A stretch of DNA of 64,000 nucleotides from Spirochaetia bacterium (GCA_965203905.1 CBDBDQ010000005.1:2720001-2784000); one strand, 5' to 3'; numbered from the stretch's first letter, positions 29,325-49,067 are shown. Notes: generated by a model from the sequence alone, not told the origin. Made by a program: numbers and translations.

Positions 29325-30911
29325 ATGACCCGACGCCGGCTGCCCATCGGCATCCAGACCTTCCGCACCCTGCGCGAACGGGACTGCTACTACGTGGACA
29401 AGACCGCCTACATGGAGCGGCTGCTCGACGAAGGCACCCATTACTTTCTGTCGCGCCCGCGGCGGTTCGGCAAGAGCCTGTTCCTGGACACGCTGAAGGA
29501 ACTGTTCCAAGGCAGCAAGGAGCTGTTCGAAGGGCTGCACATCCACGCGGGGCACAACTGGTCGGAGCGGCATCCGGTGGTGCGGCTGAGCTTCGGCGGC
29601 AGCAGCTTCACGGAGCACGCGCATCTGCACGCGAACGTGATGGCGCAGTTGGAGGGGATGGCGGAACAGCAGGGCGTGAGCGTGCGCTACGCCACCGGGC
29701 CGGAGCGGTTCGCGCATCTGCTCAGGAGCTTGCATGCGCGTGCCGGGCAGCGGGTGGCGGTGCTGGTGGACGAGTACGACAAGCCGATCCTGGACGCGCT
29801 GGAGACGCCGGAGGTCGCGCGCGCCAACCGCGACTACCTGCGCGGGCTGTACGGGGTGATCAAGGACAGCGACGCGCACGTCCGGTTCGCGTTTCTGACC
29901 GGCATCAGCAAGTTTTCCAAGGTGAACCTGTTCTCGCAGTTGAACAACCTCACCGACCTCACGCTGGATCCCGTCTTCTCGTCGATCTGCGGGTACACGG
30001 AGGACGATCTGGACGCGGTGTTCGCCCCGGAGCTTGACGGGCTTGATCGGGCGCAGGTGCGCGAGTGGTACAACGGCTATGGTTGGCGCGGTAACGAAAG
30101 AGTGTACAACCCCTTCGACGTGCTGCTGTTGCTGCGCCGCCGCGAGTTCGAGGCGCATTGGTTCGAGACCGGGACGCCCGCGTTCCTGGTGGACACGCTA
30201 TTCCAACGCCGCGTCTCGTCGGTGTCGCTGGGGGATATGGTGAGCACGGGAGAGTTGCTGTCGGAGTTCGACGTCGGTGGCCGCTCCGCCGCCGAGCACA
30301 TCGGCACCGAGGCACTGCTGTTCCAGACCGGTTACCTGACGATTGTGGGGGAGGAGCGGTTAGGCGGCGAGTCGCTGTACCAACTCGGCTATCCGAATCG
30401 CGAAGTGCGCCAGAGCCTGAACCGCGTGCTGCTGCGCCAACTGGTGCAAGACACGGGGCAGCAGATGGCCAACAGCATGCGTCTGGCGCGGCTGCTGCAG
30501 GCGCACGACTGCGCGGGGTTGAAGGCGCTGTTCCACGCCTTTTTCGCGAGCATTCCGTATCAGAGGTATGCCGCCGACGGTGGTCGGCGGACGAACAACC
30601 ACATCGCCGACTACGAAGGATTCTACGCGAGCGTGGTGTATTCCTATTTTGCGGCGCTGGGGTACGAAATCGCGGTGGAGGAGTCGAGCAGCCACGGCCG
30701 GCTCGACATGGCGGTGCGCACCGGCGGGCACGTTTACTTGTTCGAGTTCAAGGTGGCGGAGCTGTCGTCTCCGGGATCGGCCCTGGCACAGTTGCGAGAG
30801 CGGGACTACGCGGCGAAGTACCGGGGACGGGGCGAGCCGATCCACCTTATCGGAGTGGAGTTCAGCCGCGCTACGCGCAACGTGACGGCATTCGAGGTGG
30901 CCGACGGCTGA
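29325..30911 (+). CDS. AAA-ATPase-like protein with C-terminal PD-(D/E)XK nuclease domain
   Basis: LPIGIQTF, YYVDKT, RPRRFGKS, DEYDKP, GRLDM..YLFEFK. Confidence 0.9.
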   Translation: MTRRRLPIGIQTFRTLRERDCYYVDKTAYMERLLDEGTHYFLSRPRRFGKSLFLDTLKELFQGSKELFEGLHIHAGHNWSERHPVVRLSFGGSSFTEHAHLHANVMAQLEGMAEQQGVSVRYATGPERFAHLLRSLHARAGQRVAVLVDEYDKPILDALETPEVARANRDYLRGLYGVIKDSDAHVRFAFLTGISKFSKVNLFSQLNNLTDLTLDPVFSSICGYTEDDLDAVFAPELDGLDRAQVREWYNGYGWRGNERVYNPFDVLLLLRRREFEAHWFETGTPAFLVDTLFQRRVSSVSLGDMVSTGELLSEFDVGGRSAAEHIGTEALLFQTGYLTIVGEERLGGESLYQLGYPNREVRQSLNRVLLRQLVQDTGQQMANSMRLARLLQAHDCAGLKALFHAFFASIPYQRYAADGGRRTNNHIADYEGFYASVVYSYFAALGYEIAVEESSSHGRLDMAVRTGGHVYLFEFKVAELSSPGSALAQLRERDYAAKYRGRGEPIHLIGVEFSRATRNVTAFEVADG

Positions 30912-31079
30912 CGCTGGCCGCTGCATTGCCGCGAGCGCCATGGTGTCGGACTGACGCTGGTCACGGCCGACGGGGATCTGTGCGCCTGCCCCGACATCGA
31001 CGTGCTTCCCGATTCCCCGTAACCGCAGAATCTGACGGCCCCCACGTCCGCCAGAGCCGGGAAACGGGAAACGTGCAAT

Positions 31080-31108
31080 TTGACAGACTGCGACGGGCGG
31101 CGCATAGT
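31080..31108 (+). promoter_or_regulatory. Sigma70-type promoter, leader copy 1
   Basis: TTGACA-N17-CATAGT, conserved in three leaders. Confidence 0.7.
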
Positions 31109-31133
31109 AATTCATTCGGGCCGTTCCGGACTC

Positions 31134-31373
31134 ATGCCGACGAAGCCTCATCATAGCACTCAGCGCCCCCCCCAAAGGGGCGGGCCTCCAAGTATTTGTA
31201 CGAGAAGCATAAACGTACGGGCTGAGTGGGCGCGACGCCATGCGCGCCACGTCACAGCATGCCGCTGGCGTTGCCAGCTACTGCTACCGACACTTGCGCC
31301 GTCGCCGGCCACCGCTCCTCGCGGCGCTCCCGACCCAGGTGCGTGTACGGGTCCAAGGAGGTGCCGCATGTAG
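31134..31373 (+). CDS. Putative leader peptide/uORF copy 1 (79 aa, C8 tract at 31166-31173)
   Basis: MPTKPHHSTQRPP...; N-terminus conserved with 36592 and 45736. Confidence 0.45.
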   Translation: MPTKPHHSTQRPPQRGGPPSICTRSINVRAEWARRHARHVTACRWRCQLLLPTLAPSPATAPRGAPDPGACTGPRRCRM

Positions 31374-31402
31374 ACTCGGGGCTGCCGTTCTCGCTCTCCA
31401 GG

Positions 31403-31480
31403 CACCCGGCGATTGCGGGTGATCTACGAGAGTGGGCGAGGGATGGGCAGTGGCATCAGCACTCTCGAGCATTCAGGAGT
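31403..31480 (+). promoter_or_regulatory. Structured 5' UTR element, copy 1
   Basis: CACCCG/CGGGTG hairpin, then CGAGAGTG (31427-34) / CACTCTCG (31460-67), then SD AGGAG. Confidence 0.55.
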
Positions 31481-31485
31481 CCAGG

Positions 31486-33276
31486 ATGCAATACGTAATC
31501 TTTCGCAAGTTCCTCGCGGTCCTGGTCGGGCTCGTCCTGGCCGCGACCGGCCTCTGGGCGGCTGCCGCACAAGAAGAGCCGGCAGCCGCTATGGAAAAGG
31601 AGATGGTGACCGACCCCACCACCGGCGAGATGGTCACCGCGCCGCAGTATGGCGGGACCTTGATCGCGGCCATGCCGAGCGACCCCGCCGGCTCCGACGC
31701 CTATTTCGGACATCCTACGATGAAGGCGATCGAGCAGGTGTGCGAGATGCTGGCCGGGATTGACTGGGGAGTAGACCGCGACGAGCATGGCTTGAACCGC
31801 ATATACCTCCCCGACATTGCCCTGACCGGAAGGCTGGCCGAACGCTGGGAGATGTCGGCGGACGGTCTCACCCTTACCTTCCACATCCGCCAGGGCGTTC
31901 ACTGGCACGACAAGGCGCCGATGAACGGCCGCGAGCTCACTGCCGAGGATGTCGAATACAACTGGCGCCGCTATACCGGTCTGGGCAGCGGCTTCACCGA
32001 ATTCAGCCCCAACATTGCCCAGTGGTCGGGACTCGACGACTTGGGAATAGCATCGATAACCGCCACCGACCGGTATACGGTCGTCTTTACCCTGGAGCAG
32101 CCCAACCTGCAGGTCCCTCGTGAAATCCTCTGGCCGTACCCAACGTGCATCATGCCGCCCGAGGTGATCGAGCAACACGGCGACGTTACCGACTGGACGA
32201 ACCTGGTCGGCACCGGACCCTTCGAGCTGACCGACTGGGTGGAGGGCAGCTCGCTGAACTTCAAGAAGAATCCCAACTACTGGGGATTTGACGAGAAATA
32301 CCCCGAGAACCGCTTGCCCTATGTTGACCGGTTGCAGGTGATGATCATGCCGGACGAGACCACACGTTTGGCGGCGCTGCGGACCGGCAAGGTCGATTAC
32401 CTGGGTTACCTGCTCTACGCGCACGTAAAGAGCGTCAACACGATAGAGCAGCTCCAGCAGAGCAACCCCGATCTCCAGGTGTTTCCGTTCTACCGAGAGG
32501 CCACCGGTATCGCTCTGTCCGCGCAGAACCCACCCTTCACCGACGTCAGGGTGCGCCACGCCATACAGATGGCACTGGACATCGACACAATAGCCAATAC
32601 CTACTTCAAGGGTTGGTCATTGGGGCCGCCTCAGGGATTCCTGGGGGGTGGGCTGGTCGGGTTTGTTCCCGCATTCGAAGACTGGCCGGAAGAGATCAAG
32701 CAATACTACACCTACGATCCGGCGGGGGCGGAAGCGTTGCTCGATGAGGCCGGCTATCCGCGCGGCGCCGACGGCATCCGCTTCAACGCTGGCATCGACT
32801 TCCGCGACTTGTATGATCTTGGCCATTACGAGTTGGCCGTAGCCCAGCTTGGCGAGATCGGCGTTGAGGTAGAGCTGAAGCCAATGGATACGGGTACTTG
32901 GGCCGGCCGTCTCCGGGAACATACCTATGATGGCATGACCTCGGAACACGTTGGGTTCGAGCACAGCATCGGCATGCTGGGACAGAACACCTCGGCCTCG
33001 ACGTGGAACCCCGCCGGTGTGCAAGACCCGGCGTATGACGCCCTGGCTGCAGCCGTCCTGTCCGCTGCTACCCAGGAGGAGCTGAGGGGGCGGGTTGAAG
33101 AGGCGTTCATGTACCTGACCGAGAACCATTGGCACGTATGGCTCGGGAGAGCGCCGCTGTTCTCCGTGGTTCAACCCTGGGTCATCGGCTACAACGGTGA
33201 AGTTGCGCAGGAGAGCGGGGTCATCCTGGGCCGCGTCTGGATTGACCAGGATATGAAAAAAGAGATGGGCTTCTAG
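31486..33276 (+). CDS. Family-5 ABC substrate-binding protein (cassette 1)
   Basis: VTDPTTGEMVTAPQYGG, RQGVHWHDKAPMNGRELTA, VGTGPF, LLDEAGYPRGADG. Confidence 0.9.
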   Translation: MQYVIFRKFLAVLVGLVLAATGLWAAAAQEEPAAAMEKEMVTDPTTGEMVTAPQYGGTLIAAMPSDPAGSDAYFGHPTMKAIEQVCEMLAGIDWGVDRDEHGLNRIYLPDIALTGRLAERWEMSADGLTLTFHIRQGVHWHDKAPMNGRELTAEDVEYNWRRYTGLGSGFTEFSPNIAQWSGLDDLGIASITATDRYTVVFTLEQPNLQVPREILWPYPTCIMPPEVIEQHGDVTDWTNLVGTGPFELTDWVEGSSLNFKKNPNYWGFDEKYPENRLPYVDRLQVMIMPDETTRLAALRTGKVDYLGYLLYAHVKSVNTIEQLQQSNPDLQVFPFYREATGIALSAQNPPFTDVRVRHAIQMALDIDTIANTYFKGWSLGPPQGFLGGGLVGFVPAFEDWPEEIKQYYTYDPAGAEALLDEAGYPRGADGIRFNAGIDFRDLYDLGHYELAVAQLGEIGVEVELKPMDTGTWAGRLREHTYDGMTSEHVGFEHSIGMLGQNTSASTWNPAGVQDPAYDALAAAVLSAATQEELRGRVEEAFMYLTENHWHVWLGRAPLFSVVQPWVIGYNGEVAQESGVILGRVWIDQDMKKEMGF

Positions 33277-33309
33277 GAAGCGCCAGCTCTACGGAAGAGT
33301 GGGTGTCAA

Positions 33310-33352
33310 GGGACCGGGAGGCTGTCGTTTGCGGACGCGCCTCCCGGCTCCC
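33310..33352 (+). terminator. Stem-loop between SBP and dppB
   Basis: GGGA-CCGGGAGGC...GCCTCCCGG-CTCCC; homologous to 38903-38946. Confidence 0.6.
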
Positions 33353-33384
33353 GCTGCCGGTAAACCAGCAATGACGAGTGTCAC

Positions 33385-34386
33385 ATGAGGGCGTACATCA
33401 TCCGGCGGTTGTTGCTGACCATCCCCACCCTGTTCCTATTGACCATCCTGGTCTTTCTCTCCGTTCGCTTTCTTCCCGGCGACGTCATAGACACCATGGT
33501 GTCCGAATCGTCGGTGTACGGGGACGTCATGGACCGTGCGGCGTTCGAGCGTATGCTGGGATTGGATGTGCCGGTATACGTGCAGTATGGACGCTGGATC
33601 GGCGTGCTCTCGACCCCTGACTGGCGTACCGGTGAGTCCCACTTCAGAGGTCTCCTGCAGGGCAGCCTCGGCCGCTCACTGGTGGGCGGCCGGTTGCCGG
33701 TGGAGCGGAAGATAGTCGGTCGATTGCCGGTGACCATCGAGCTCGGGGTCATGTCCATCATCCTCGGGCTGCTGATCGCGCTGCCGGTGGGCATCTACGC
33801 GGCGATTCGTCAGGACACGGCGGCCGACTACGCGGGTCGTTCGTTCGCCATCATCGGCCTGGCGACGCCCAACTTCTGGCTGGCGACCATGGTGATGATC
33901 TACCCGGTCGTCTGGTGGAGCTGGTCGCCACCGATGCAGTGGGTCAGGTTCACGGAAGACCCGCTGGAGAATCTGGGGGTGTTCATCATCCCCAGCCTGA
34001 TTGTGGGAACGGGCATGGCCGCTGCCACCATGCGGATGACGCGCACCATGATGCTGGAGGTGCTCAGGCAGGATTTTGTCAGGACCGCGTGGTCCAAGGG
34101 ACTGCGGGAGCGGGTCGTCGTCATGCGGCACGCCGTCAAGAATGCCCTGATCCCGGTGGTTACGCTGATCGGTCTGCAGTTGCCGATCGTGGTCGGCGGC
34201 GCCGTCATCATGGAGAACATCTTCAACCTGCCGGGACTGGGCCGGGTCATGGTGCTTGCTCTCAGTGAGCGAGACTACCCGGTGGTGTCGGGGATAAACC
34301 TGTTGTTCGCCGCCGCGGTCGTGGCGATCAATCTGCTGATCGATCTGCTCTATCCGTACCTGGACCCCAGGGTCCGCTATGCCTAG
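33385..34386 (+). CDS. DppB-like permease (cassette 1)
   Basis: MRAYIIRRLL, QDFVRTAWSKGL, LDPRVRY. Confidence 0.9.
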   Translation: MRAYIIRRLLLTIPTLFLLTILVFLSVRFLPGDVIDTMVSESSVYGDVMDRAAFERMLGLDVPVYVQYGRWIGVLSTPDWRTGESHFRGLLQGSLGRSLVGGRLPVERKIVGRLPVTIELGVMSIILGLLIALPVGIYAAIRQDTAADYAGRSFAIIGLATPNFWLATMVMIYPVVWWSWSPPMQWVRFTEDPLENLGVFIIPSLIVGTGMAAATMRMTRTMMLEVLRQDFVRTAWSKGLRERVVVMRHAVKNALIPVVTLIGLQLPIVVGGAVIMENIFNLPGLGRVMVLALSERDYPVVSGINLLFAAAVVAINLLIDLLYPYLDPRVRYA

Positions 34387-35314
34387 CAGTTCGAATACAG
34401 CCGGAGTTGCGCCACGGGCTGCCAGAGAACGGCAAAAGCCTGCTGCGTTCTTTGCCCGACTGTGGCGGGAGAAGCCACTGGGCAGCGCCTGCGGGATCAT
34501 CATACTGATACTGATTCTGGTCAGTATCCTGGCCGATGTTCTGGCTCCGTACGATCACATGGAACCACACCCGTCCGACATTCTGCAGGGCCCGTCAGCC
34601 AAGTATCTCCTGGGCACCGACTACGTGGGGCGGGACTTCTTGAGCCGCATCATCCACGGCGCCCGGCTGTCGTTGGCCGTCGGTCTGGCGGCGACCACGC
34701 TGAATGTTGTGGTCGCGGTGCTGATCGGCGGTACCTCTGGGTTCTTTGGCGGCAAGCTGGATCTGGCTGTGCAGCGATTCGTCGACGCCTGGATGGCGTT
34801 TCCCGGGCTGCTCCTGTTGCTGACCGTAATGTCGATCGTGGGGCGGGGCATGCTGCAGATCATCGTGGTCCTGGGGATAACGGGGGGCATCGTCGGCTCG
34901 AGAACGGTCAGAGGCGCCGTCATCGACATAAAGGAGAACACCTATTTCCACGCGGCACAGTCGATCGGCTCCGCCGGATGGCGAACCTTCATTCGCCACG
35001 TGCTGCCCAATATCGCGCCGGTGGTTATCGTCATATTCACCATCAACATCGGCGGTGTGATCATCAGTGAGGCGTCGTTGAGCTTTCTCGGCTTCGGTCT
35101 GCCGCCGAGCGTGCCGAGCTGGGGCGCCATGCTGAGCCGGGAAGGGCGCCAGTTCATGGAGATTGCCCCATGGCTGGCGCTCTGGCCAGGTCTGTGCCTG
35201 ACTGTCGTGGTGTACAGCCTGAACATGTTCGGCGACGCGCTGCGCGATCTGCTCGATCCCCGGCTGCACGGCGGCGCCGGCCGTCTCGACGCCCGCGGCT
35301 CATCTCCCGGCTGA
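34379..35314 (+). CDS. DppC-like permease (cassette 1)
   Basis: LGTDYVGRD, HVLPNI, GDALRDLLDPR. Confidence 0.9.
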   Translation: MPSSSNTAGVAPRAARERQKPAAFFARLWREKPLGSACGIIILILILVSILADVLAPYDHMEPHPSDILQGPSAKYLLGTDYVGRDFLSRIIHGARLSLAVGLAATTLNVVVAVLIGGTSGFFGGKLDLAVQRFVDAWMAFPGLLLLLTVMSIVGRGMLQIIVVLGITGGIVGSRTVRGAVIDIKENTYFHAAQSIGSAGWRTFIRHVLPNIAPVVIVIFTINIGGVIISEASLSFLGFGLPPSVPSWGAMLSREGRQFMEIAPWLALWPGLCLTVVVYSLNMFGDALRDLLDPRLHGGAGRLDARGSSPG

Positions 35315-35488: not shown

Positions 35489-36457
35489 TCAGCCGCCAGA
35501 TGATCGGCGGAGCGCGGCAAGGAAATCGGCCTCATCGGCGCAGCCGAGGGCCGCTGTCAGCAGCGCCGCCTCCGACGCCGTGGCGAACGCCTCCGCATCC
35601 GCAGAGAAACCCTCCGACACCGCAATGCCCCGCGACTGCAGAATCTGGCGGACCATCCGTGCACGACCTTGCGCCAAGCCGCGCTCGAACCCCTGGCGCC
35701 GTTGCGAGCGCAGCAGCGGGTCGTCGTCCGGGCCGGTGCCTTCGCGCGCGCCGAGCGCCGCGGCAACCCGCTCCACGGCCGCGCTCGTTTGCGCTGACGG
35801 CACCGGTTCGTTCAGCGCCAGGTGAATCTCTTCGGCCTGCCAGCCGGGAAACGCCCGGCTCGCAGCCGCAACCCGGAACCGGCCACGCTCCAGCAGATGG
35901 ATCGTCAGCCCCGAGGGGCGCCGGTGCGGACGGCTCGGGGACGGCGCGTCCGGCACCTCCACCCACACTTCCGGGAATCCCCACGATTCGTACAGCGCGA
36001 GCTTGCCGCGGTGGACGTCGGTGGTGTGATCCACCTCCAGCACCACGTCGGGAAAGTCGTCCTCGCCCACCACCATGGCTGCGGGCCCCGGCTTGGCCCG
36101 CTCCGGATGCAGGTACACCGACTCGTCGGCCTGCATGATGCGCCGCGGTTCGCCGCCGGAGTCGCGCAGCAGCAGGTCCATCGAGCCGTACGATTCGATC
36201 GGCGAGCCGCGCACTCCCGCGATCCGCTCGGCCAGGCGCGTCACCAGGCGCGACGGCCGCTCGTGATAGGGAGTGGTGGGGTCGCAGATCCAGGCGGTCT
36301 CGGTGGCCGCATCCCAATACTCGAGCCGCCCCTCGAAGCGCTCGATCTCGGTGCGCGGCAGGTGCACCGGCTTGCAGCCGGGGAACGCCGGCGGCTGGGC
36401 GTGCCGGGGTTGGGCTGCCGCGTGGCGCCCGGATGGCGGTGCTTCGGTGCTGGCCAT
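35489..36457 (-). CDS. Uma2-family PD-(D/E)XK endonuclease
   Basis: QADESVY, PDVVLEVD, KLALYESWGFPEVW, SRAFPG. Confidence 0.85.
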   Translation of the reverse strand: MASTEAPPSGRHAAAQPRHAQPPAFPGCKPVHLPRTEIERFEGRLEYWDAATETAWICDPTTPYHERPSRLVTRLAERIAGVRGSPIESYGSMDLLLRDSGGEPRRIMQADESVYLHPERAKPGPAAMVVGEDDFPDVVLEVDHTTDVHRGKLALYESWGFPEVWVEVPDAPSPSRPHRRPSGLTIHLLERGRFRVAAASRAFPGWQAEEIHLALNEPVPSAQTSAAVERVAAALGAREGTGPDDDPLLRSQRRQGFERGLAQGRARMVRQILQSRGIAVSEGFSADAEAFATASEAALLTAALGCADEADFLAALRRSSGG

Positions 36458-36538
36458 GACGCCATGGTAGGCCATCTCGCGCGCGCATGCAAACCGAACG
36501 TTCCAGATCCGCCAGAGCCGGGAAGCGTAAACGTGCAA

Positions 36539-36567
36539 TTGACAGTGCGCGGCGGGCGGTGCACAGT
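36539..36567 (+). promoter_or_regulatory. Sigma70-type promoter, leader copy 2
   Basis: TTGACA-N17-CACAGT. Confidence 0.7.
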
Positions 36568-36591
36568 AGAGCGATCAGGGACTCTTGCCTC

Positions 36592-36966
36592 ATGCCGACG
36601 ACGCTCGACCATAGCACTCAGCGCTGTCACCAGTTGACGCAGTTGGTTACGTCCCCCCCCCCCCCCCCCCCCGGCAACTCTTTATACAATAATCCATTAA
36701 CACTAACCGCCCCGGCTGATCGTCCCGTACGCGACCTCGCGTTCGCCGTCGCTTTCACCACCGCCGTAGCTATGGCTGGCGCCGCCTCGATCCATCGCCG
36801 AACCGGCATGCGGGCCGCCCGCCACGCGCAGCCCACCCGACAAATACGGCAAGCACCCGGACCAGGGCCTACGGGCCTACCTACAGAAATGGAGGTGCAA
36901 AATGATACTCAAAGAACCGCACCACGCGCGCGGCCCGAGTTCATAACGCTCATGCCGCGCGCGTGA
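36592..36966 (+). CDS. Putative leader peptide/uORF copy 2 (124 aa) containing the C20 tract
   Basis: MPTTLDHSTQRCHQLTQLVTSPPPPPPG...LTAPADRPVRD. Confidence 0.5.
   Translation: MPTTLDHSTQRCHQLTQLVTSPPPPPPGNSLYNNPLTLTAPADRPVRDLAFAVAFTTAVAMAGAASIHRRTGMRAARHAQPTRQIRQAPGPGPTGLPTEMEVQNDTQRTAPRARPEFITLMPRA
36653..36672 (+). repeat. C20 homopolymer (slipped-strand tract)
   Basis: 20 consecutive C; the only run of this length seen in the window. Confidence 0.9.
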
Positions 36967-36995
36967 CCACCAGGGATTGCCACCGCTGTCTGGAC

Positions 36996-37075
36996 GCCTG
37001 CGTTGCGGGCGCGAGAGTGGCAGGGAAAAGGCAACTCGCTCGGAGAGCACTCTCAGAATCTCAGATATGGGAGAG
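36996..37075 (+). promoter_or_regulatory. Structured 5' UTR element, copy 2
   Basis: GCCTGC-GTT-GCGGGC, GAGAGTG (37013-19) / CACTCTC (37048-54), SD GGGAGAG. Confidence 0.55.
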
Positions 37076-37081
37076 ATCAGT

Positions 37082-38893
37082 ATGATTCTTCCCAGAATAA
37101 GAATCGCACACACTTTCGTGTTTGTGCTCGTGTTCGCCCTGACTGCCACCGGTGTCTGGGCCAGTCCGGCCGGCGAAGAGGAGCCGGCAGCCGCTGCCGA
37201 CAAGAAGTACGTGACCGACCCCACCACCGGCAAGGTGGTGGTGGCGCCACAGTACGGCGGGATACTAACCGCTGGGCATACTCAGGCCGGTAGTACTGGG
37301 GCTCCTAATGACCCCTATTTCGGCAATCCGTGGGGCCCAGGGGCGGCCGTCAATGAGAGGCTTGGTATCGGGAACTGGGGAATAGATAGAGACGTATTTG
37401 ACTTCAAAGCGGTCTACCTACCTCTGTCTGCCCTAACGGGGAGGCTGGCTGAAAGCTGGGATATTTCTCCGGACGGCCTCACCTATACCTTCAACATCCG
37501 CCAGGGCGTTAACTGGCAGAACAAGGCACCGATGAACGGGAGAGAATTCACTGCGGATGATGTCGTATTCAACTTTCACCGCTATCTGGGTCTGGGCGAC
37601 TTCACCGAAGCCGGACCTAGCACCTGGGTTGGCGCTGCCAACTTCATCTCCATACCATTCGAATCGGTAACGGCCACCGATAAATACACGGTTGTGATGA
37701 AGCTGAAGGAGCCAAATCTCACTGCGCTGGAGCTTATCCTCAACGACCGTGCTGTTGCAATATTGCCCCCCGAGGTAATCGAGCAATACGGCGACATGCA
37801 GGATTGGAGGAACGTGGTCGGCACGGGACCCTTTATGGTGACTGATGTCGTCGAGGAGAGCAGCATCACCTGGACCAAGAATCCTGACTACTGGGGCTAT
37901 GACGAGAAGTACCCGCAGAACCGCTTGCCCTACGTTGACCAGTTTCGGCGGCTGGTTATTCCAGAGGAAGGAACAATGATGGCGGCACTACGCTCAGGCA
38001 AGCTTGATTTCAGAATGTTTGCCCCTTCAGATATCGACTCGATAGAGAGCCTGCAGCGGACCAACCCCGAAGTCGAGGTGCACCCGATCTATTTTCGGTC
38101 GAGTGATTCTTTTGCTCCTAACCATCGCGTGCCGCCCTTTGACGACATCAACGTGCGTCGCGCCCTGCAGATGGCGCTGGACAACGAGACCGTTGCGGGT
38201 ACGTACTGGAAGGGTTGGGCAGATCCGACACCTCACGGGCTGGTAGGGTTGCAAGGGTATTTCATCCCCTTCGAGGAATGGGACGAAGAGGTCAAGCAAT
38301 ACTACCGGTATGACCCGGAAGCTGCCGAGAAGCTCCTTGATGAGGCTGGGTATCCGCGCGGCGCCGACGGCATTAGATTCAAGGCCGCCCTGAATTATAC
38401 GGAATCGGCAAGCTTGGATTTTGCAGAAATAGCTTCCGCCTACTGGGCTGAGATTGGCGTCGATTTTGAGATTGCGCCGGGTTCCAGCTACGCCGAATAT
38501 ACCGAGAGAATAGGCTCGGGTACCTGGGAAGGCATGCACAGTCAAATTGCGGGCGCCGCTTATGCCCCTCTCCTGATGGCAAGCTGGTATCACTCGGACG
38601 GGGCATTGAACCGCGGCGGATCCCAGTGGCCTGAGATGGACGCCATGGTTGACGCCGTCCGAGCCGCTACTACCAACGAGGAGCAGAAGATGCTGATAAA
38701 AGAGCTGGATATGTACGCGATAGAGAAGCACTGGCTGATATATGCTCCCAAAACTGCGTTTATTCATTATGCCCAGCCGTGGGTCATAGGCTATAGCGGT
38801 GAATTTCCAAATGCTTTGGGCCAGTCAGAAACCTATACCGTCTTTGCCCGCCTCTGGATTGATAGTGAGCTGAAGGAGGCAATGGGTTATTAG
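37082..38893 (+). CDS. Family-5 ABC substrate-binding protein (cassette 2)
   Basis: YVTDPTTGKVVVAPQYGG, KAPMNGREFTA, VGTGPF, LWIDSELKEAMGY. Confidence 0.9.
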   Translation: MILPRIRIAHTFVFVLVFALTATGVWASPAGEEEPAAAADKKYVTDPTTGKVVVAPQYGGILTAGHTQAGSTGAPNDPYFGNPWGPGAAVNERLGIGNWGIDRDVFDFKAVYLPLSALTGRLAESWDISPDGLTYTFNIRQGVNWQNKAPMNGREFTADDVVFNFHRYLGLGDFTEAGPSTWVGAANFISIPFESVTATDKYTVVMKLKEPNLTALELILNDRAVAILPPEVIEQYGDMQDWRNVVGTGPFMVTDVVEESSITWTKNPDYWGYDEKYPQNRLPYVDQFRRLVIPEEGTMMAALRSGKLDFRMFAPSDIDSIESLQRTNPEVEVHPIYFRSSDSFAPNHRVPPFDDINVRRALQMALDNETVAGTYWKGWADPTPHGLVGLQGYFIPFEEWDEEVKQYYRYDPEAAEKLLDEAGYPRGADGIRFKAALNYTESASLDFAEIASAYWAEIGVDFEIAPGSSYAEYTERIGSGTWEGMHSQIAGAAYAPLLMASWYHSDGALNRGGSQWPEMDAMVDAVRAATTNEEQKMLIKELDMYAIEKHWLIYAPKTAFIHYAQPWVIGYSGEFPNALGQSETYTVFARLWIDSELKEAMGY

Positions 38894-38902
38894 AGAAAGA
38901 AA

Positions 38903-38946
38903 GGGAGCTGGGAGGCTGTCGCCTGCAGGCGCGCTTCCCAGCTCCC
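38903..38946 (+). terminator. Stem-loop between SBP and dppB
   Basis: GGGAGCTGGGAGGC...GCTTCCCAGCTCCC. Confidence 0.65.
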
Positions 38947-38949
38947 AAC

Positions 38950-38988
38950 GAGATTGCCACGCCTCCATGAATCCAGGCTCGCAATGAC
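38950..38988. repeat. Partial REP-like element
   Basis: GAGATTGCCACG...CTCGCAATGAC resembles a widespread bacterial intergenic palindromic repeat (from recall, not searched). Confidence 0.4.
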
Positions 38989-39003
38989 GGGGAGTAATGT
39001 GAC

Positions 39004-40011
39004 ATGAGAGCCTATCTCATCAGGAGGTTATTGCTCATAATTCCCACCTTGTTTATCTTGAGCATCCTGGTCTTTCTCTCGGTCCGCTTCATCCCGGGCG
39101 ATGTAATAGACACAATGGCGGCTAGGATGGCAGAGACGGGGGCGCTGGCATTCAAGATTGATCGTGAAGCTCTAGAGCAAATGCTGGGATTAGACGTGCC
39201 TGTCTACGTGCAGTATGGACGCTGGACAGGGGTGTCGCCAACCCCCGACTTTGTTACCAAGGAGTCTCACTTCAACGGTCTCCTCCAGGGCAGCCTTGGT
39301 GAATCACTGATGAGCTCTTTTACGGTAGAAGAGAAGATAATGGGCAGATTGCCAGTAACCATTCAGCTTGGTGTCATGGCAATCGTAATTGGGCTCGTGA
39401 TAGCGCTTCCGGTCGGCATCTACTCGGCGATGCGCCAGGATACCGCCGCCGACTACCTGGGGCGCTCGATCGCCATCCTCGGCCTGGCAACTCCCAACTT
39501 CTGGCTGGGACTTTTGGTCGTGCTCTACCCCGCCATCTGGTGGGGCTGGTCGCCGCCGATGGAGCTGATTCCTCTTGCCGAAGACCCGCTGGGGAATCTC
39601 CGGATGTTTCTCATTCCCAGCTTGATTGTGGGCACGGCCTCGGCTGCCGCCACCATGCGGATGACGCGCACCATGATGCTGGAGGTGCTCAGGCAAGACT
39701 ATATCAGGACCGCCTGGGCCAAGGGTCTCAGGGAGCGGGTGGTCGTCATGCGGCACGCCGTCAAGAACGCACTCATCCCGGTGGTTACCCTGATCGGCCT
39801 GCAGTTGCCGATCCTGATCGGTGGCTCGGTCATCATGGAGAACATATTCAACCTGCCGGGGTTGGGTCGTCTCATGGTGGTTGCGCTGAAAGATCGAGAC
39901 TATCCGGTGGTCTCCGGGGTCAACCTGTTCTTCGCCACCGCGGTGGTGCTGTTCAATCTCCTGATCGACCTGCTCTATTCCTGGCTGGACCCGAGGGTGC
40001 GGTATGAATGA
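39004..40011 (+). CDS. DppB-like permease (cassette 2)
   Basis: MRAYLIRRLL, QDYIRTAWAKGL. Confidence 0.9.
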   Translation: MRAYLIRRLLLIIPTLFILSILVFLSVRFIPGDVIDTMAARMAETGALAFKIDREALEQMLGLDVPVYVQYGRWTGVSPTPDFVTKESHFNGLLQGSLGESLMSSFTVEEKIMGRLPVTIQLGVMAIVIGLVIALPVGIYSAMRQDTAADYLGRSIAILGLATPNFWLGLLVVLYPAIWWGWSPPMELIPLAEDPLGNLRMFLIPSLIVGTASAAATMRMTRTMMLEVLRQDYIRTAWAKGLRERVVVMRHAVKNALIPVVTLIGLQLPILIGGSVIMENIFNLPGLGRLMVVALKDRDYPVVSGVNLFFATAVVLFNLLIDLLYSWLDPRVRYE

Positions 40012-40891
40012 GGCGCGCGGCCAGTTTGCCGATTTCTTCGGCAGGTTGTGGCGGCAGAAGCCCCTGGGCATCGCCAGCGGGATCGTCATCTTGATCCTGA
40101 TTCTGTTGGCGATCTTCGCCGATGCTCTGGCCCCCTATCCCGTCGATCAACTGAACCTGGCAGAAAGGCTGCAGGGCTCATCGACCCGCCATCTGCTGGG
40201 GACCGACCAGTTGGGCCGCGACCAGTTGAGCCGGCTGCTGGTCGGGGCACGGATCTCGCTGGTCGTTGGTCTGGCGGCGACCACGCTGAACGTGGTGGTC
40301 GCCACCCTGATCGGTGGCACCTCCGGATTCCTCGGGGGCAAGCTGGACCTGGCCGTGCAGCGGTTCGTCGATGCCTGGATGGCGTTCCCGGGGCTGCTGC
40401 TGTTGCTCACGATCATGTCGGTTGCGGGGCAGGGTCTGCCACAGATCATCGTGGTGCTGGGGATCGCCGGTGGCGTGGGCGGCTCGCGCGTGGTCAGAGG
40501 CGCGGTGGTGGCCACCAAGGAGAACGATTTTTTTCTGGCCGCCCGGGCGGTCGGCGCGCCGACGCGACAGGTCCTGGTGCGCCACGTCCTGCCCAACATC
40601 GTCGCGCCGCTGATCATCGTCTTCAGCATCAACGTCGGCGGCGTCATTCTGGCCGAGGCGAGCTTGAGCTTTCTCGGGTTCGGGCTGCCCGTCAGTGTCC
40701 CCAGCTGGGGAGGGATGCTCAGCCGGGAGGGGCGGCGGTTCATGGAGCAGGCGCCGTGGCTGGCGCTGTGGCCCGGGCTGTGCCTGACGATTGTGGTGTA
40801 CAGCTTCAACATGTTGGGTGATGCGATGCGGGACCTGCTCGATCCGCGGCTGCGCGGCGGGGGGCGTCTGGCTGCCGGCGGCGCCACGTAG
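40004..40891 (+). CDS. DppC-like permease (cassette 2)
   Basis: LGTDQLGRD, GDAMRDLLDPR. Confidence 0.9.
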   Translation: MNEARGQFADFFGRLWRQKPLGIASGIVILILILLAIFADALAPYPVDQLNLAERLQGSSTRHLLGTDQLGRDQLSRLLVGARISLVVGLAATTLNVVVATLIGGTSGFLGGKLDLAVQRFVDAWMAFPGLLLLLTIMSVAGQGLPQIIVVLGIAGGVGGSRVVRGAVVATKENDFFLAARAVGAPTRQVLVRHVLPNIVAPLIIVFSINVGGVILAEASLSFLGFGLPVSVPSWGGMLSREGRRFMEQAPWLALWPGLCLTIVVYSFNMLGDAMRDLLDPRLRGGGRLAAGGAT

Positions 40892-44408: not shown

Positions 44409-44556
44409 CCGCTATGGAACAACTCATCGTTGAACGTGCATGCGCTCGACGGCTGCGCCGGCATCACGCAGGTGCGGGTCGCAACAGCAAGGCGGCCGAG
44501 CTTCCAACATCTCATCGTTTAGAAGCGTCGGCGAACCATACCCCGTAGAACAGGGT

Positions 44557-45540
44557 ATGGCCGGCGAGATCTCCAAGCCCCACGATCACCTGTTTCGCTC
44601 CGTATTCGGAGAAGACAAGGAAGCCGAGGCGGCCAGCCTGCTGCAGGCCTGCCTGCCGCCGGCGGTCAGCCGCGAATTGCTGTGGTCGAGCCTCAAGTGG
44701 CAGTCTGTGAGCTTCATCGACGACCGCCTGCGCGACAGCGAATCGGACCTGCTGTACGCGATCCGTCGCACCGCCGACGGCGCCTCGGCGTGGCTGTACG
44801 TGCTGCTGGAGCACCAGTCGACCCCGGACCCGTGGTTGCGGCTGCGGCTGCTGAAGTACAGCATCCGGATCTGGGAACGCGATCGGCAGCGGCATCCGCA
44901 GGAGCAACAGTTGCGCCCGATCGTGCCGCTGGTGCTGTATCAGGGCGGGCGCGTGTGGCGTGAAGCGCGTGAGTTCGCGGAGCTGTTTTCCGAGGTGGTG
45001 CGGGATTGGCCGGGAGTGCCGCGCTACGCGCACCTGTTGATCGATCAGACGCAGGCCGGACCGGAGGAGTTGCGCGGGGAGCTGCTCGGTCGCATCGCGC
45101 AACTGGCGATGATGGCGGCGTACCGGGCGAGCTGGCCGGTGTTGCAGCGGCTGGTGCCGCTGCTGGCGGAGTTGGCGCAGGCAGGCGGCAGCGAAGACCT
45201 GCAGCGGATCGTGGTGTACATTGCGGCCACGACACGGGAGCCGAAGCGCTGGCACCGATTCGCGGAGGCAGTCCGTCGCCAGGTGCCGGGAGGTGGAGAA
45301 CTGATGAACAAGACCGAGGAGATGATCGAGATATACGGCGACATGAGGGAGCGTGAGGGCCGCCAGGAAGGCCGCCAGGAAGGCGAGTTACGCGGCAAGG
45401 TGCAGACCATCGAGGGTCTCGTGGGACGCGATGTCCCCTGGTCCATCATCGAAGCGGCCACCGGAATCGACCAGGCCACCTTCGACCGGCTCAAGCGCCA
45501 ACTCGACACCGCTGACGGCAGCGCCACCCACTCCAACTAA
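44557..45540 (+). CDS. Rpn/YhgA-like recombination-promoting nuclease (Transposase_31)
   Basis: PHDHLFR, SFIDDRL...SDLLY, LLEHQSTPD, PIVPLVLY, EGRQEGRQEG. Confidence 0.9.
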   Translation: MAGEISKPHDHLFRSVFGEDKEAEAASLLQACLPPAVSRELLWSSLKWQSVSFIDDRLRDSESDLLYAIRRTADGASAWLYVLLEHQSTPDPWLRLRLLKYSIRIWERDRQRHPQEQQLRPIVPLVLYQGGRVWREAREFAELFSEVVRDWPGVPRYAHLLIDQTQAGPEELRGELLGRIAQLAMMAAYRASWPVLQRLVPLLAELAQAGGSEDLQRIVVYIAATTREPKRWHRFAEAVRRQVPGGGELMNKTEEMIEIYGDMREREGRQEGRQEGELRGKVQTIEGLVGRDVPWSIIEAATGIDQATFDRLKRQLDTADGSATHSN

Positions 45541-45566: not shown

Positions 45567-45650
45567 CGGATGGCGGTGCTTCGGTGCCGGCGATGGCGCC
45601 AGCGCACCCCATCTCGCGCGCGTATTGAAACTGAACGTTCCAGATCAGCC
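45567..45650 (-). pseudogene. 5' remnant and upstream region of the second Uma2 copy
   Basis: CCGGATGGCGGTGCTTCGGTGC...CCATCTCGCGCGC...GAACGTTCCAGATC matches 36429-36510. Confidence 0.8.
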
Positions 45651-45682
45651 GGGAGCCGGCAACGCATCGAAAAAACGTGAGA

Positions 45683-45711
45683 TTGACAGTGCACGGCGGG
45701 CGGTGCATAGT
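45683..45711 (+). promoter_or_regulatory. Sigma70-type promoter, leader copy 3
   Basis: TTGACA-N17-CATAGT. Confidence 0.7.
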
Positions 45712-45735
45712 AGAGCGCTCAGGGATTCTTGGCTC

Positions 45736-45981
45736 ATGCCGACGACGCTCGACCATAGCACTCAGCGCTGTCACCCAGTTGACGCAGTTGGTTACTTCGC
45801 CCCCACCCACCCGGCCCCCACTTTTTCGAACCGAGAACAACTAACCGCTCCGGCTGATCGCCCCGTACGCGACCCCGCGCACGCCGTCGCGTTCACTACC
45901 GCCGTACCTGTCGGTGGCGCCGGCTACGGAAAACGGCAGTGCAAGGTGGTACTCAAAGAACCGCACGCACGCGCGGCGTGA
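45736..45981 (+). CDS. Putative leader peptide/uORF copy 3 (81 aa), interrupted C-tract at 45800-45819
   Basis: MPTTLDHSTQRCHP...LTAPADRPVRD. Confidence 0.5.
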   Translation: MPTTLDHSTQRCHPVDAVGYFAPTHPAPTFSNREQLTAPADRPVRDPAHAVAFTTAVPVGGAGYGKRQCKVVLKEPHARAA

Positions 45982-46042
45982 GCCGGGGTGAACCCGACGA
46001 GTTACACGCCGCGCGCTTCTGAGAACCTGACTCAAACTGGCA

Positions 46043-46118
46043 GCCCGCGTTGCGGCCCGAGAGTAGCCAGGAGGCGGCAATCCGCTGCGCAATACTCTCG
46101 AAAATCTACATACGGAGT
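46043..46118 (+). promoter_or_regulatory. Structured 5' UTR element, copy 3
   Basis: CCGC-GTT-GCGG, CGAGAGTA (46058-65) / TACTCTCG (46093-100), SD GGAG. Confidence 0.55.
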
Positions 46119-46123
46119 TACGT

Positions 46124-47917
46124 ATGAATACTGTCACAATCACCCGGGCCTTTGCGGTTGCGTTGGCCCTGGTCCTGAGCGCAAACAGCGTGTGGGCCAC
46201 TGGCGCGGAAGAGGCGCCGGCAGCCGCGGCCGAGAAGCAGTACGTGACCGACCCCACCACCGGCAAGGTGGTGGTGGCGCCACAGTACGGCGGGACGATA
46301 ACCTTCGTCGACAACGGTTCGGCGGGTACGGTCACCGACTACTACGTGAGTGGGGCTGGCCCGAAGAACGTCCAGCTCTTCATGGAGAAGCTGGGTATCG
46401 CGAACTGGGCAATAGATCGGGACGTATGGCCCTATAACACACAGCACATCCCTGACTTTGCCTTGTCAGGGCGGCTGGCCGAAAGCTGGGAGCAACCCGA
46501 CCTGGACACTATTATCTTCAAGATCCGGCAGGGCGTTCACTGGCATGACAAGCCACCGATGAACGGTCGGGAGTTGACCGCCGCGGATGTCGAATGGAGC
46601 TTTCATCGCCTGTTGGGACTGGGCAGCGGCTTCACCGAACCCGCCCCAACGGTCTGGGCTCTGCCCCAATTCAGAACCAAGTCGGTAACAGCCACCGACC
46701 AGTATACGGTTGTCTTTGAGCTGGATCCGCCAGCCCCCTGGGCGCTGAATCGGATCCTCCGTGGAGATAACACCGCCATACTGCCGCGCGAGGTAATCGA
46801 GCAACACGGCGACTATAATGACTGGCGGAACGTGGTCGGCACCGGACCCTTCATGCTGACTGACCACGTCGAGGGCACCTCTTGGACCTACGTCAAGAAT
46901 CCCGACTACTGGGGTTACGACGAAAAGTACCCGGAGAACCGGCTGCCCTATGTTGACGAGATACAACGCCTGATATCGAAGGAACAAGCGACCATTCTGG
47001 CGATGATGCGCACCGGAAAGGCTGATTACATCGGTTACGGCGGCGACACGCAAATCACTTCTATCGACGCGGCAACAACCCTGCAGGAGACCAACCCGGA
47101 CCTGAACCTGTGGCCATATTCATACCGTGCGGAGACGGCGATGGCCTTCAACACGCAGATCTCGCCCTGGAACGACATCAGGGTGCGCCGCGCAATACAG
47201 ATGGCGATCGACCTTGAGACGATCAACCGGACCTACCACCAGGGTTGGGCAAATCCGACGGCGGCAGCGGCTCTAGGGGACGCCATGGTCGGGTATGTCA
47301 CCCCATTTGAAGAGTGGCCCGACGATCTCAAGGAATACTATACCTATGACTCGGAACGGGCGGAAGCTTTGCTTGACGAGGCTGGCTATCCGCGCGGCGC
47401 CGACGGCATTCGATTCGAAACCGTCTATGGCCACCTGGACCGCGGCGACTTCGATTTGGACTATTTCCAGATAGTCATGGAATACTTGCGTGCCATTGGT
47501 ATTGATATAGAGGTGGAGAAGATCCCGGTAGCGCAGTGGGGGTCTTATGTAAGGGATTCCCGGGGGGAGGGTCTGTTTCTCAACGTACACAACACCGACT
47601 ATATCACTGGCCTAGACAGCTTCTATTCGACCGGATACAACCCGTCCAACGTCAATGACCCGGCTTTTGACGCCATAATGGACGCCTTCCGCGCCGCTAC
47701 TGCGACCGAGGAGCAGCAGAGGCTCGCGAGGGAGGCAGTTATGTACATCGCGGAGCAGCACTGGACCATAGCGGGACCGAGAGTCCCCAGTTTCATGGTC
47801 ACCCAGCCGTGGCTGGTGGGTTACAGCGGCGAAGTCGAGCTGGGGGAAATGGACCGTGCGATCATACTTTCGCGCCTCTGGATTGACCAGGATCTGAAGG
47901 CGGAAATGGGCTTCTGA
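46124..47917 (+). CDS. Family-5 ABC substrate-binding protein (cassette 3)
   Basis: YVTDPTTGKVVVAPQYGG, HDKPPMNGRELTA, LWIDQDLKAEMGF. Confidence 0.9.
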   Translation: MNTVTITRAFAVALALVLSANSVWATGAEEAPAAAAEKQYVTDPTTGKVVVAPQYGGTITFVDNGSAGTVTDYYVSGAGPKNVQLFMEKLGIANWAIDRDVWPYNTQHIPDFALSGRLAESWEQPDLDTIIFKIRQGVHWHDKPPMNGRELTAADVEWSFHRLLGLGSGFTEPAPTVWALPQFRTKSVTATDQYTVVFELDPPAPWALNRILRGDNTAILPREVIEQHGDYNDWRNVVGTGPFMLTDHVEGTSWTYVKNPDYWGYDEKYPENRLPYVDEIQRLISKEQATILAMMRTGKADYIGYGGDTQITSIDAATTLQETNPDLNLWPYSYRAETAMAFNTQISPWNDIRVRRAIQMAIDLETINRTYHQGWANPTAAAALGDAMVGYVTPFEEWPDDLKEYYTYDSERAEALLDEAGYPRGADGIRFETVYGHLDRGDFDLDYFQIVMEYLRAIGIDIEVEKIPVAQWGSYVRDSRGEGLFLNVHNTDYITGLDSFYSTGYNPSNVNDPAFDAIMDAFRAATATEEQQRLAREAVMYIAEQHWTIAGPRVPSFMVTQPWLVGYSGEVELGEMDRAIILSRLWIDQDLKAEMGF

Positions 47918-48110
47918 GGCACTCGCCGTAGGCGATCTGCAGTGGATCCCGCTCTTGGGTGGGGTCCACGAATCCGACTACGTCGGCACGGTCACTCCGT
48001 GACAGGAAGACCATGAACGGCGATGCGCAGGTATCGCCCGCCGGTCAGCTTTTTTGGACCAGGCGCCGGGAGCCTTGAGCTTCCCGGCGCCGCCCGTTTT
48101 ACACGAAGAT

Positions 48111-49067
48111 ATGAGAGCCTACATCATCCGGCGGCTGCTGCTGGTCATCCCCACCCTGCTCATATTGAGCATCCTCGTCTTTCTCTCGGTCCGCTTCATC
48201 CCCGGCGACGTAATAGATGCGATGTTTGGTGACCTGCAATACATGGGTGCGGGTATCGACCGTGCAGCGTTCGAGCGCCGGCTGGGACTCGACGTGCCTG
48301 TCTACGTGCAGTATGGACGCTGGCTAGGGGGTGTTTTCCTGCACGGCACGCTGGGCGAATCACTGATGTACGGTTGGCCGGTAGAGGAGAAGTTGCTCGG
48401 CAGATTGCCGTTGACCATTCAGCTTGGCGTCATGGCAATCGTGATCGGGCTGTTGATCGCCCTCCCCGTCGGCATCTACTCGGCGATTCGCCAGGATACG
48501 GCCGCCGACTACCTGGGGCGCTCCATCGCCATCGTCGGCCTGGCTACGCCGAACTTCTGGCTCGGACTCATGGTCATGCTGTTCCCGGCACTCTGGTGGG
48601 GCTGGTCGCCACCGGTGTTGTGGGTTCCGTTCGCCGAAGACCCGCTGGGGAACCTGGGGGTGCTCCTCATTCCCAGCCTGATCTTGGGGACGGCCTCGGC
48701 TGCAGCCACCATGCGGATGACGCGCACCATGATGCTGGAGGTGCTGCGGCAGGATTTTGTCAGGACCGCCTGGTCCAAGGGACTGAGGGAGCGGGTCGTG
48801 GTCATGCGGCACGCCATCAAGAATGCCCTCATCCCGGTTGTCACGCTGATCGGTCTGCAGTTGCCGATCCTGGTGGGGGGCGCCGTGATCATGGAGAACA
48901 TATTCAACCTGCCGGGGCTCGGGCGTCTCATGGTGCTGGCCCTCGAGCAGAGGGACTACCCGGTGGTCTCCGGGGTAAACTTGTTGTTCGGCACCGCGGT
49001 GGTGCTGTTCAATCTCCTGATCGACCTGATTTACCCCTTCTTTGATCCAAGAGTCCGCTATGAATGA
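48111..49067 (+). CDS. DppB-like permease (cassette 3)
   Basis: MRAYIIRRLL, QDFVRTAWSKGL. Confidence 0.9.
   Translation: MRAYIIRRLLLVIPTLLILSILVFLSVRFIPGDVIDAMFGDLQYMGAGIDRAAFERRLGLDVPVYVQYGRWLGGVFLHGTLGESLMYGWPVEEKLLGRLPLTIQLGVMAIVIGLLIALPVGIYSAIRQDTAADYLGRSIAIVGLATPNFWLGLMVMLFPALWWGWSPPVLWVPFAEDPLGNLGVLLIPSLILGTASAAATMRMTRTMMLEVLRQDFVRTAWSKGLRERVVVMRHAIKNALIPVVTLIGLQLPILVGGAVIMENIFNLPGLGRLMVLALEQRDYPVVSGVNLLFGTAVVLFNLLIDLIYPFFDPRVRYE

Follow-up and report, generated by a model that had tools for sequence, protein, structure and literature searches.

What a run of 20 cytosines is doing in the leader of a solute-uptake operon, and whether its length could matter to the genes behind it, is the question raised by this locus, which lies in the 64,000-nucleotide stretch of Spirochaetia DNA that was analysed here as a whole (hereafter the window). 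In a preliminary description the run (C20) was read as a reading-frame switch, such that with 20 C a short upstream ORF (uORF) would stay open and the gain or loss of a single C would close it at once. The observation is confirmed and is larger than was then seen: the run is part of a genus-specific cassette that carries a hypervariable repeat at a fixed joint. As for its function, C20 has the look of a regulatory dial that can be tuned, and a role as a reading-frame switch is unproven. Of the earlier interpretation, the slippage-prone repeat upstream of an operon is supported, while for its action through a frame-switched leader peptide no independent support was found.

The sequence of the run was checked directly, and in the window there is only one other run of at least 8 C, the C8 of leader copy 1 (Table 1). 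From the ATG at 36592, the frame reads SPPPPPPGNSLYNNPLTLT and is open for 124 codons until a TGA at 36964-36966, just as had been described, and the slipped frames do stop almost at once: the 21-C frame reads RQLFIQ* (stop after 6 codons) and the 19-C frame reads PATLYTIIH* (stop after 9 codons), both non-open frames being closed within 25 nt past the run. In copy 1, the two other frames end 36 and 49 nt past the run, which agrees with the earlier account of their early closure, and the tract of copy 3 is indeed broken, being an interrupted C-rich stretch. The A+T-rich patch that was said to supply the stops in the other frames is also seen in the mean over 29 copies, where the 40 nt 3′ of the run have 50-52% A+T as compared with 33-36% further off. 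The patch is a conserved module present behind the run in most members of the family described below, and the stops in the two closed frames derive from it.

Runs of this kind are rare, with only 18 runs of at least 10 C or G in the whole 7.99-Mb genome; ten of these lie inside full members of the leader family described below, an eleventh is followed by the family's downstream module, and C20 is the longest family run in its own genome. The exact length of this 20-nt homopolymer is that of one assembly, to within 1-2 bases either way, which bears on any mod-3 argument. An assembly artefact as the source of the runs was rejected, since four genomes assembled independently of one another all have runs at the homologous spot, a rejection that covers the existence of the run and not the exact count of 20. 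In public data examined over 36300-37100, contigs of the best-matching run (X1) include exact pieces on both sides of the locus and none across 36651-36758, one low-depth contig of a further run (X3) spans the place with 36642-36680 masked, and an RNA run (X19) gives almost no cover past 36523; these data are uninformative on heterogeneity, expression and habitat. Metagenome scans for the C20 locus, made with both flanks and a variable gap or with the left flank alone, gave no matches.

Table 1. Positions in the window of the C20 leader, its parts, its operon and its two paralogues.
Feature	Position	Strand	Basis or remark
Promoter-like pair TTGACA, 17-nt spacer, CACAGT	36539..36567	+	conserved, head of module A
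Purine-rich SD-like AGGGA and conserved ATG (36592-36594)	36577..36594	+	start of proposed uORF
Short hairpin, 7 pairs including G-U, 3-nt loop	36630..36646	+	directly before run
C20 run, length-unstable C-rich simple repeat	36653..36672	+	sequence; predicted unpaired
A+T-rich patch, stops in two frames	36673..36705	+	frame reading, composition
Module B, conserved C-rich, G-poor segment with short hairpins	36702..36830	+	BLAST, 16 genome copies
Module C: strong SD GGAGG, 14-codon ORF 36902-36946, hairpin	36891..36965	+	fold, SD pairing
Module C 12-bp G+C hairpin arms	36923-36934 with 36954-36965	+	fold
Open frame through run	36592..36966	+	judged no conserved coding sequence
Operon behind C20 leader	37082..40891	+	Pfam
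SBP_bac_5 binding protein, copy 2 operon	37082-38893	+	Pfam
Two permeases, copy 2 operon	39004-40011, 40004-40891	+	Pfam
Leader copy 1, C8 at 31166-31173	31030..31485	+	ahead of SBP gene 31486-33276
Leader copy 3, interrupted C-rich stretch 45800-45819	45630..46123	+	ahead of SBP gene 46124-47917

The window contains three paralogous operons, each encoding an SBP_bac_5 binding protein and two permeases, with leaders of 450-600 nt before them that are related to one another. A search of the genome of origin with 36490-37100 gave 46 matches, in separate modules, and a profile of the leader region (nhmmer) gave about 50 hits; about 30 of the copies in this genome are full leaders, mostly ahead of SBP_bac_5 ABC operons, and 29 copies carry a C run of 5-20 at the equivalent position. 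Among 27 first large ORFs downstream of the leaders, 20 are homologous to the binding protein of the window (44-66% identity), and the others include one SBP_bac_5 protein recognized by Pfam, one SBP_bac_1 protein and one homocysteine methyltransferase. Many copies of the leader occur in six of ten congener genomes, and none turned up in the 30 genomes searched from other genera within the same taxonomic family and order. With a small covariance model that combines hairpin and run, three congeners yielded 102 (E threshold 0.01), 19 and 25 matches (E threshold 1e-4 for both). Nothing in the whole window matched Rfam 15 at the gathering score, and at E up to 5 the region 36400-37150 drew only a chance match to a vertebrate lncRNA model (14.6 bits vs a gathering score of 55 bits). 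Full-text literature searches gave no description of a leader family like this among the matches listed, which is not proof of absence. The leader is a modular cassette confined to one genus and precedes mainly SBP_bac_5 ABC-uptake operons. All three operons of the window (31486-35314, 37082-40891 and 46124-49986) lack an ATPase gene directly behind them, and the next ORF after the copy 2 operon lies on the opposite strand and has no Pfam match.

Read in the 5′ to 3′ direction, the cassette has one or more promoter-like units (each about 126 nt long), followed by a small hairpin and then by the C-rich repeat, the A+T-rich patch, module B and module C. The motif TTGAC[AG] stands 107-129 nt before the run in 69 of 98 members and is followed at 17-nt spacing by an A2/T6 hexamer in 51 of these 69; in the C20 copy, the second hexamer fits at 3/6 positions only and the consensus scan found no site. 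Given the position of this promoter-like pair upstream, the run is probably transcribed. The pair is followed by a conserved segment of about 60 nt holding a nearly invariant ATG (A in 87, T in 91 and G in 92 of the 98 aligned copies), with a purine-rich motif 8-12 nt to its 5′ side. Pairing potential is conserved in the hairpin before the run, where the helix is paired in 88.2% of cells (41 copies) vs 5-44% with a slid partner. We do not claim this hairpin as a proven RNA helix, since its covariation is at the level of shuffles (63/500), and it is weak in the C20 copy itself (-6 kcal/mol, z -0.6).

At many loci module A lies behind a tandem array of up to five further units, each about 126 nt long. 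Every unit repeats the conserved ATG segment and has a TTGACA-like and a -10-like hexamer of its own, and none of them contains the run. The spacing from unit to unit is exactly 126 nt in 14 of 18 cases (examples are found at about 1500-2300 (-) of locus L014 in congener G005, and at C5:6002836-6003075 and C5:3635708-3635957 in the own genome). One frame is open across four such units, and they were considered as possible protein-coding sequence and rejected as such, as there is no synonymous excess and opposite-strand frames are open too. Module B similarly has no 3-nt periodicity, with gap lengths of 1, 2 and 7 and a diversity by codon position of 0.291, 0.287 and 0.243, so that third positions vary least. 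Module C folds strongly in the C20 copy (z -4.24, with 0 of 200 shuffles as stable), and is found in copy 3 as well (45940-46015, fold z -3.3). The 5′ arm of its hairpin lies inside a short ORF, which in copy 2 has 14 codons and begins MILKEPH; SD pairing of this ORF averages -10.7 kcal/mol over 23 genome copies, whose start codons are ATG (14), GTG (3), CTG (3), TTG (2) and GTA (1). As a translation-coupled attenuator, module C looks more convincing than the frame that passes through the C run.

Variation in the run itself was followed across 98 members, 31 from the own genome and 67 from loci of three congeners, after the removal of one false site. Their runs range from 5 to 55 C, with 7 the commonest length. 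In 21 of the 23 pairs whose flanks (60 nt each side) are at least 90% identical, and which are paralogues or orthologues and not cells of one population, the run lengths are unequal, with differences of 1-21 nt; the length therefore changes far faster than the flanks, which bears out the earlier view of the tract as slippage-prone. C20 is also long enough to slip, for which a homopolymer of about 8 or more suffices, and the family extends to 55. Repeat type varies as well: a run of C5 or longer is present in 99 of 117 terminal-type members (four genomes sampled) and lacking in 18. Some of these 18, like some other members, have alternative C-rich repeats at the same spot: an 8-mer present about 13 times, a 7-mer, a 4-mer, and (AC)n directly after the run. 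As other repeats can replace the run, the conserved property is a C-rich, G-poor simple repeat of unstable length and not a series of proline codons.

The run appears to be a breakpoint between modules as well. The counterpart of the C20 locus in congener G004 is 94.6% identical over 1377 nt, and this homology ends inside the run, which in G004 is a C9 followed by an unrelated leader and a different binding-protein gene. Among the members there are 23 pairs that are at least 80% alike upstream and less than 50% alike downstream, and no pair in which the reverse holds. The leader DNA of copies 2 and 3 is 86-88% identical, as against 48% for their binding proteins; leaders being far more alike than the genes they serve, the cassettes would have spread, or been homogenised by gene conversion, independently of those genes. 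Judging from these alignments, the run is apparently also the joint where modules are exchanged.

The explanation that we tentatively prefer is that a slippage-prone, unpaired C-rich platform in the 5′ leader tunes Rho-type attenuation. Partition-function folds over -105 to +330 predict an unpaired run (mean P(unpaired) of at least 0.5) in 26 of 28 copies, with a value of 0.86 for the C20 of the window copy, and no common pairing partner was found for it within the same range. A pairing of the run with the SD of module C was weighed by eye and dropped, the window copy not covarying. C exceeds G for about 180 nt from the run onward; the first 78 nt from the run are at or above the 94th percentile of the genome for C-G in 27 of 29 copies, and with the run left out the C-G excess still averages +11.2. 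The region folds no better than its shuffles in the C20 copy (z -0.06), and genes for both Rho and EF-P are present in the genome. About 80 nt of C-rich, G-poor, unstructured RNA in a genome that encodes Rho are features necessary for a rut-like site, and not proof of one. What is conserved here is a C-rich, G-poor, unpaired stretch of unstable length, and neither a reading frame nor proline codons.

As we envisage it, transcription from the upstream promoter-like site would run across the C-rich repeat, and the unpaired C-rich stretch would then be the entry platform from which Rho-dependent (or similar) attenuation acts ahead of the binding-protein gene. Replication slippage would alter the length of the repeat, and this length may in turn tune read-through copy by copy. 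C-richness and non-pairing are compositional arguments only, and as the copies are related, their counts overstate the independent support. The 18 of 117 terminal-type members without a C5 run speak against an indispensable run, and the closure of exactly two frames after the run, considered below, is a pattern that the platform does not predict and that fits the uORF alternative.

It is somewhat unlikely, in our judgement, that the run is instead a neutral microsatellite and recombination joint between module A and what follows, without a regulatory role. A neutral microsatellite at a tolerated spacer would give equal length variation, and the run-free members, together with lengths such as 28 and 55 that look like free expansion, are in line with this. 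The same is true of the exchange of sequence around the run, to which belong the similar leaders ahead of dissimilar binding proteins in copies 2 and 3, the G004 homology that stops inside the run and the 23 pairs alike on the upstream side only. Neutrality accounts less readily for the persistence of a C-rich repeat at the same position in 99 of 117 members despite diverged flanks, for the origin of different C-rich motifs at the same spot, or for a C-over-G skew that extends over about 180 nt even where, in certain subtypes, the downstream sequence is unrelated. Persistence, varied C-rich motifs and extended skew suggest a constraint on composition.

The frame switch of the preliminary description we consider unlikely. 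Here repeat length would set the frame of a leader ORF that starts at the conserved ATG: in the OFF state, either of the two frames that stop within about 60 nt would leave the C-rich RNA bare and Rho would terminate, and in the ON state the third frame would be translated as far as module C and shield the RNA, with slippage yielding per-operon phase variation. In E. coli, polyproline translated in the absence of EF-P, or uncoupled translation, leads to Rho termination when it lies ahead of rut sites (PMC5021804), and because polyproline so placed triggers termination, both our own reading and the earlier one are plausible. The arrangement of the leader is in several respects what a frame switch would call for. 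The ATG, with its purine-rich motif, is among the best conserved columns, the frame that it starts enters the run in 94 of 98 copies, and in 79 of 98 copies the 60 nt that follow the run close exactly two frames, as compared with a share of about 0.40 in block shuffles. Furthermore, every repeat unit seen (1, 2, 4, 7 and 8 nt) is no multiple of 3, and the long frame is found in 24 of 41 copies with runs of 8 or fewer and in 16 of 53 with runs of 9 or more (Fisher 0.007, on copies that are not independent). The open frame always ends in module C, but as stops occur there in every frame this outcome is trivial, and the overall division of the 94 copies into 40 long and 54 short is near the neutral 1:2 (p 0.06).

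Against translation of the uORF stands, first, the lack of a synonymous excess in its frame, as the synonymous share of pairwise single-base differences is 0.289 in this frame vs 0.274 and 0.304 in the other two. The internal tandem units likewise have no coding signal (0.290 vs 0.347 and 0.217), and they contain the same ATG and SD-like motif though they lack the run. Measured against an anti-SD yardstick, SD-like pairing at the uORF ATG averages -5.1 kcal/mol, stronger than at random ATGs (-3.6) and weaker than in four real genes (-6.1 to -7.4), and it falls well short of the -10.7 of the module C ORF. A 1-nt indel separates copies 2 and 3 inside the supposed uORF, as happens between other close copies too, module B lacks coding periodicity as noted above, and stop avoidance tested by column permutation (P 0.33) is uninformative, with just 10 of 98 copies free of indels. 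The excess of open frames is strong at the level of copies (p 1.6e-5) but is carried by one cluster of 51 copies: when copies are grouped into 17 clusters by downstream sequence, the frame open through the patch is stop-free in 0.45 vs 0.41 for the others (p 0.93), so that one open frame with the others closed does not exceed shared ancestry at this level. Neither a codon-level signature nor regulatory codons kept as codons were found, and since repeats that do not encode proline can replace the run, polyproline stalling is not the conserved feature. We judge the frame 36592..36966 to be no conserved coding sequence. The leader-peptide switch as first proposed has no independent test in its favour, with no codon-level signal and mixed frames among the copies; it is coherent, and lacks support once ancestry is controlled.

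Broader in scope, and in our view quite unlikely, is the proposal that each of the 30-100 ABC-uptake operons per genome has its own slippage-driven dial within a shared mobile leader cassette, where the state of each transporter, be it ON, OFF or intermediate, would be set by repeat length, acting via a short leader ORF and Rho polarity or via a common C-binding factor.

That the C run is the target of a trans-acting G-rich sRNA or of a poly(C)-binding protein, with its length setting the strength or sign of the effect, seems very unlikely. A precedent is found in Helicobacter pylori, where the sRNA RepG targets a G-repeat in the tlpB leader and control is gradual and length dependent (PMC8295292), and the run considered here is also predicted to be unpaired and lies in a presumed 5′ UTR. 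Like ours, the tlpB repeat is a variable homopolymer located in a 5′ leader, outside any ORF or promoter core, and in both cases the expected effect of length is to tune expression, beyond simple switching. It differs in that the run here is of C and not G, in that dozens of paralogous leaders carry one in each genome, and in that here no complementary sRNA is known and other C-rich repeats substitute. No partner was found among the genome's 18 C or G runs of at least 10, where those G runs that lie outside the family have no sRNA-like context, and the substitution of non-homopolymer repeats for the run also argues against such a target.

Promoter-level phase variation, in which the run would alter the spacing or melting of an overlapping promoter, is extremely improbable and was rejected, for although poly-G and poly-C tracts in the promoters of paralogous families are established switches (PMC7864442) and a TACAAT-like hexamer occurs in the patch after the run in this copy, the sole conserved -35/-10-like pair is 107-129 nt upstream, the consensus scan found no promoter-like site that spans the run, the -10-like hexamer is absent in most subtypes, and with 20 C the nearest TTGACG is 45 nt from TACAAT. 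Those switches resemble the present family in one respect: poly-G tracts are described in the promoters of the Treponema pallidum tpr paralogues and of tp0126, and poly-C or poly-G tracts in the opc and porA promoters of Neisseria meningitidis (PMC7864442), and as in those genes, paralogues here each have their own upstream homopolymer of varying length. The tracts in those examples lie within or beside the -35 and -10 elements, whereas in our family the conserved pair is far upstream of the run.

Returning to the attenuation platform that we prefer, the Rho attenuation described for EF-P and polyproline (PMC5021804) has in common with it a possible short ORF, proline codons and then C-rich RNA. 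In our leaders, unlike in that system, the 'proline codons' are a pure nucleotide run that is replaceable and has no codon-level conservation, and the uORF is putative. Translation-coupled Rho attenuation at proline codons is also the mode of control in the mgtL and mgtP leaders of Salmonella. In their modular structure the cassettes resemble the BOX elements of pneumococci, which are dispersed intergenic repeats: in both, modules recur in varied combinations and copy numbers in the intergenic DNA of a single lineage. Unlike BOX elements, the cassettes described here are oriented and tied to the 5′ side of one operon class, and they combine promoter-like units with a hypervariable simple repeat at a module joint.

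Hypermutable simple repeats are mainly known from host-adapted pathogens with small genomes, in which it is surface structures that they switch. In the genus studied here, an unstable C-rich repeat precedes dozens of solute-uptake operons in genomes of 5-8 Mb and about 66% G+C, and if its length affects read-through, this would amount to genome-wide, per-operon tuning of nutrient uptake. Were the slippage dial real, a clonal population would be a combinatorial mix of nutrient-uptake states, and a large high-G+C genome would possess, in its cassettes, a system of contingency loci that serves metabolism instead of surface antigens. The 30-100 paralogous leaders of a genome, with runs from 5 to 55, provide a natural series for length effects on Rho loading, translation or RNA decay, and an effect of homopolymer length across this series could be read from a single transcriptome. 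If length is without effect, the family would still clearly exemplify the concerted evolution of regulatory cassettes ahead of diverging genes.

Several further observations concern long homopolymers in and around the family. The longest runs, of 55, 28 and 28 C, come from congeners (L213 in G004, L183 and L176 in G005) and may be assembly-inflated or real. One contig (L024, G006 contig C1, first 200 bases) ends in more than 40 G at the place where the C run is expected after module A, which is probably a sequencing or assembly artefact at a homopolymer. Outside the family, the own genome has a G22 (C5:2839144-2839165) in A+T-richer intergenic DNA about 290 nt before an ORF, and a C11 (C5:7258295-7258305) that comes just downstream of an SD-like site and a TTG, where a permease-like ORF starts.

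The Rho protein of this genome (L043, 610-2316 (-)) is 568 aa long, and about 140 of its residues precede the segment alignable to most relatives; the closest public relatives come from Spirochaetota MAGs, with up to 81% identity, which is a hint only. Finally, the genes immediately upstream of the three leaders in the window encode an AAA-ATPase-like protein with a PD-(D/E)XK domain (copy 1, 29325-30911 (+)), a putative endonuclease of the Uma2 family (copy 2, 35489-36457 (-)) and a YhgA-like putative transposase (Transposase_31; copy 3, 44440-45540 (+)), all three of classes linked with mobile or defence DNA.
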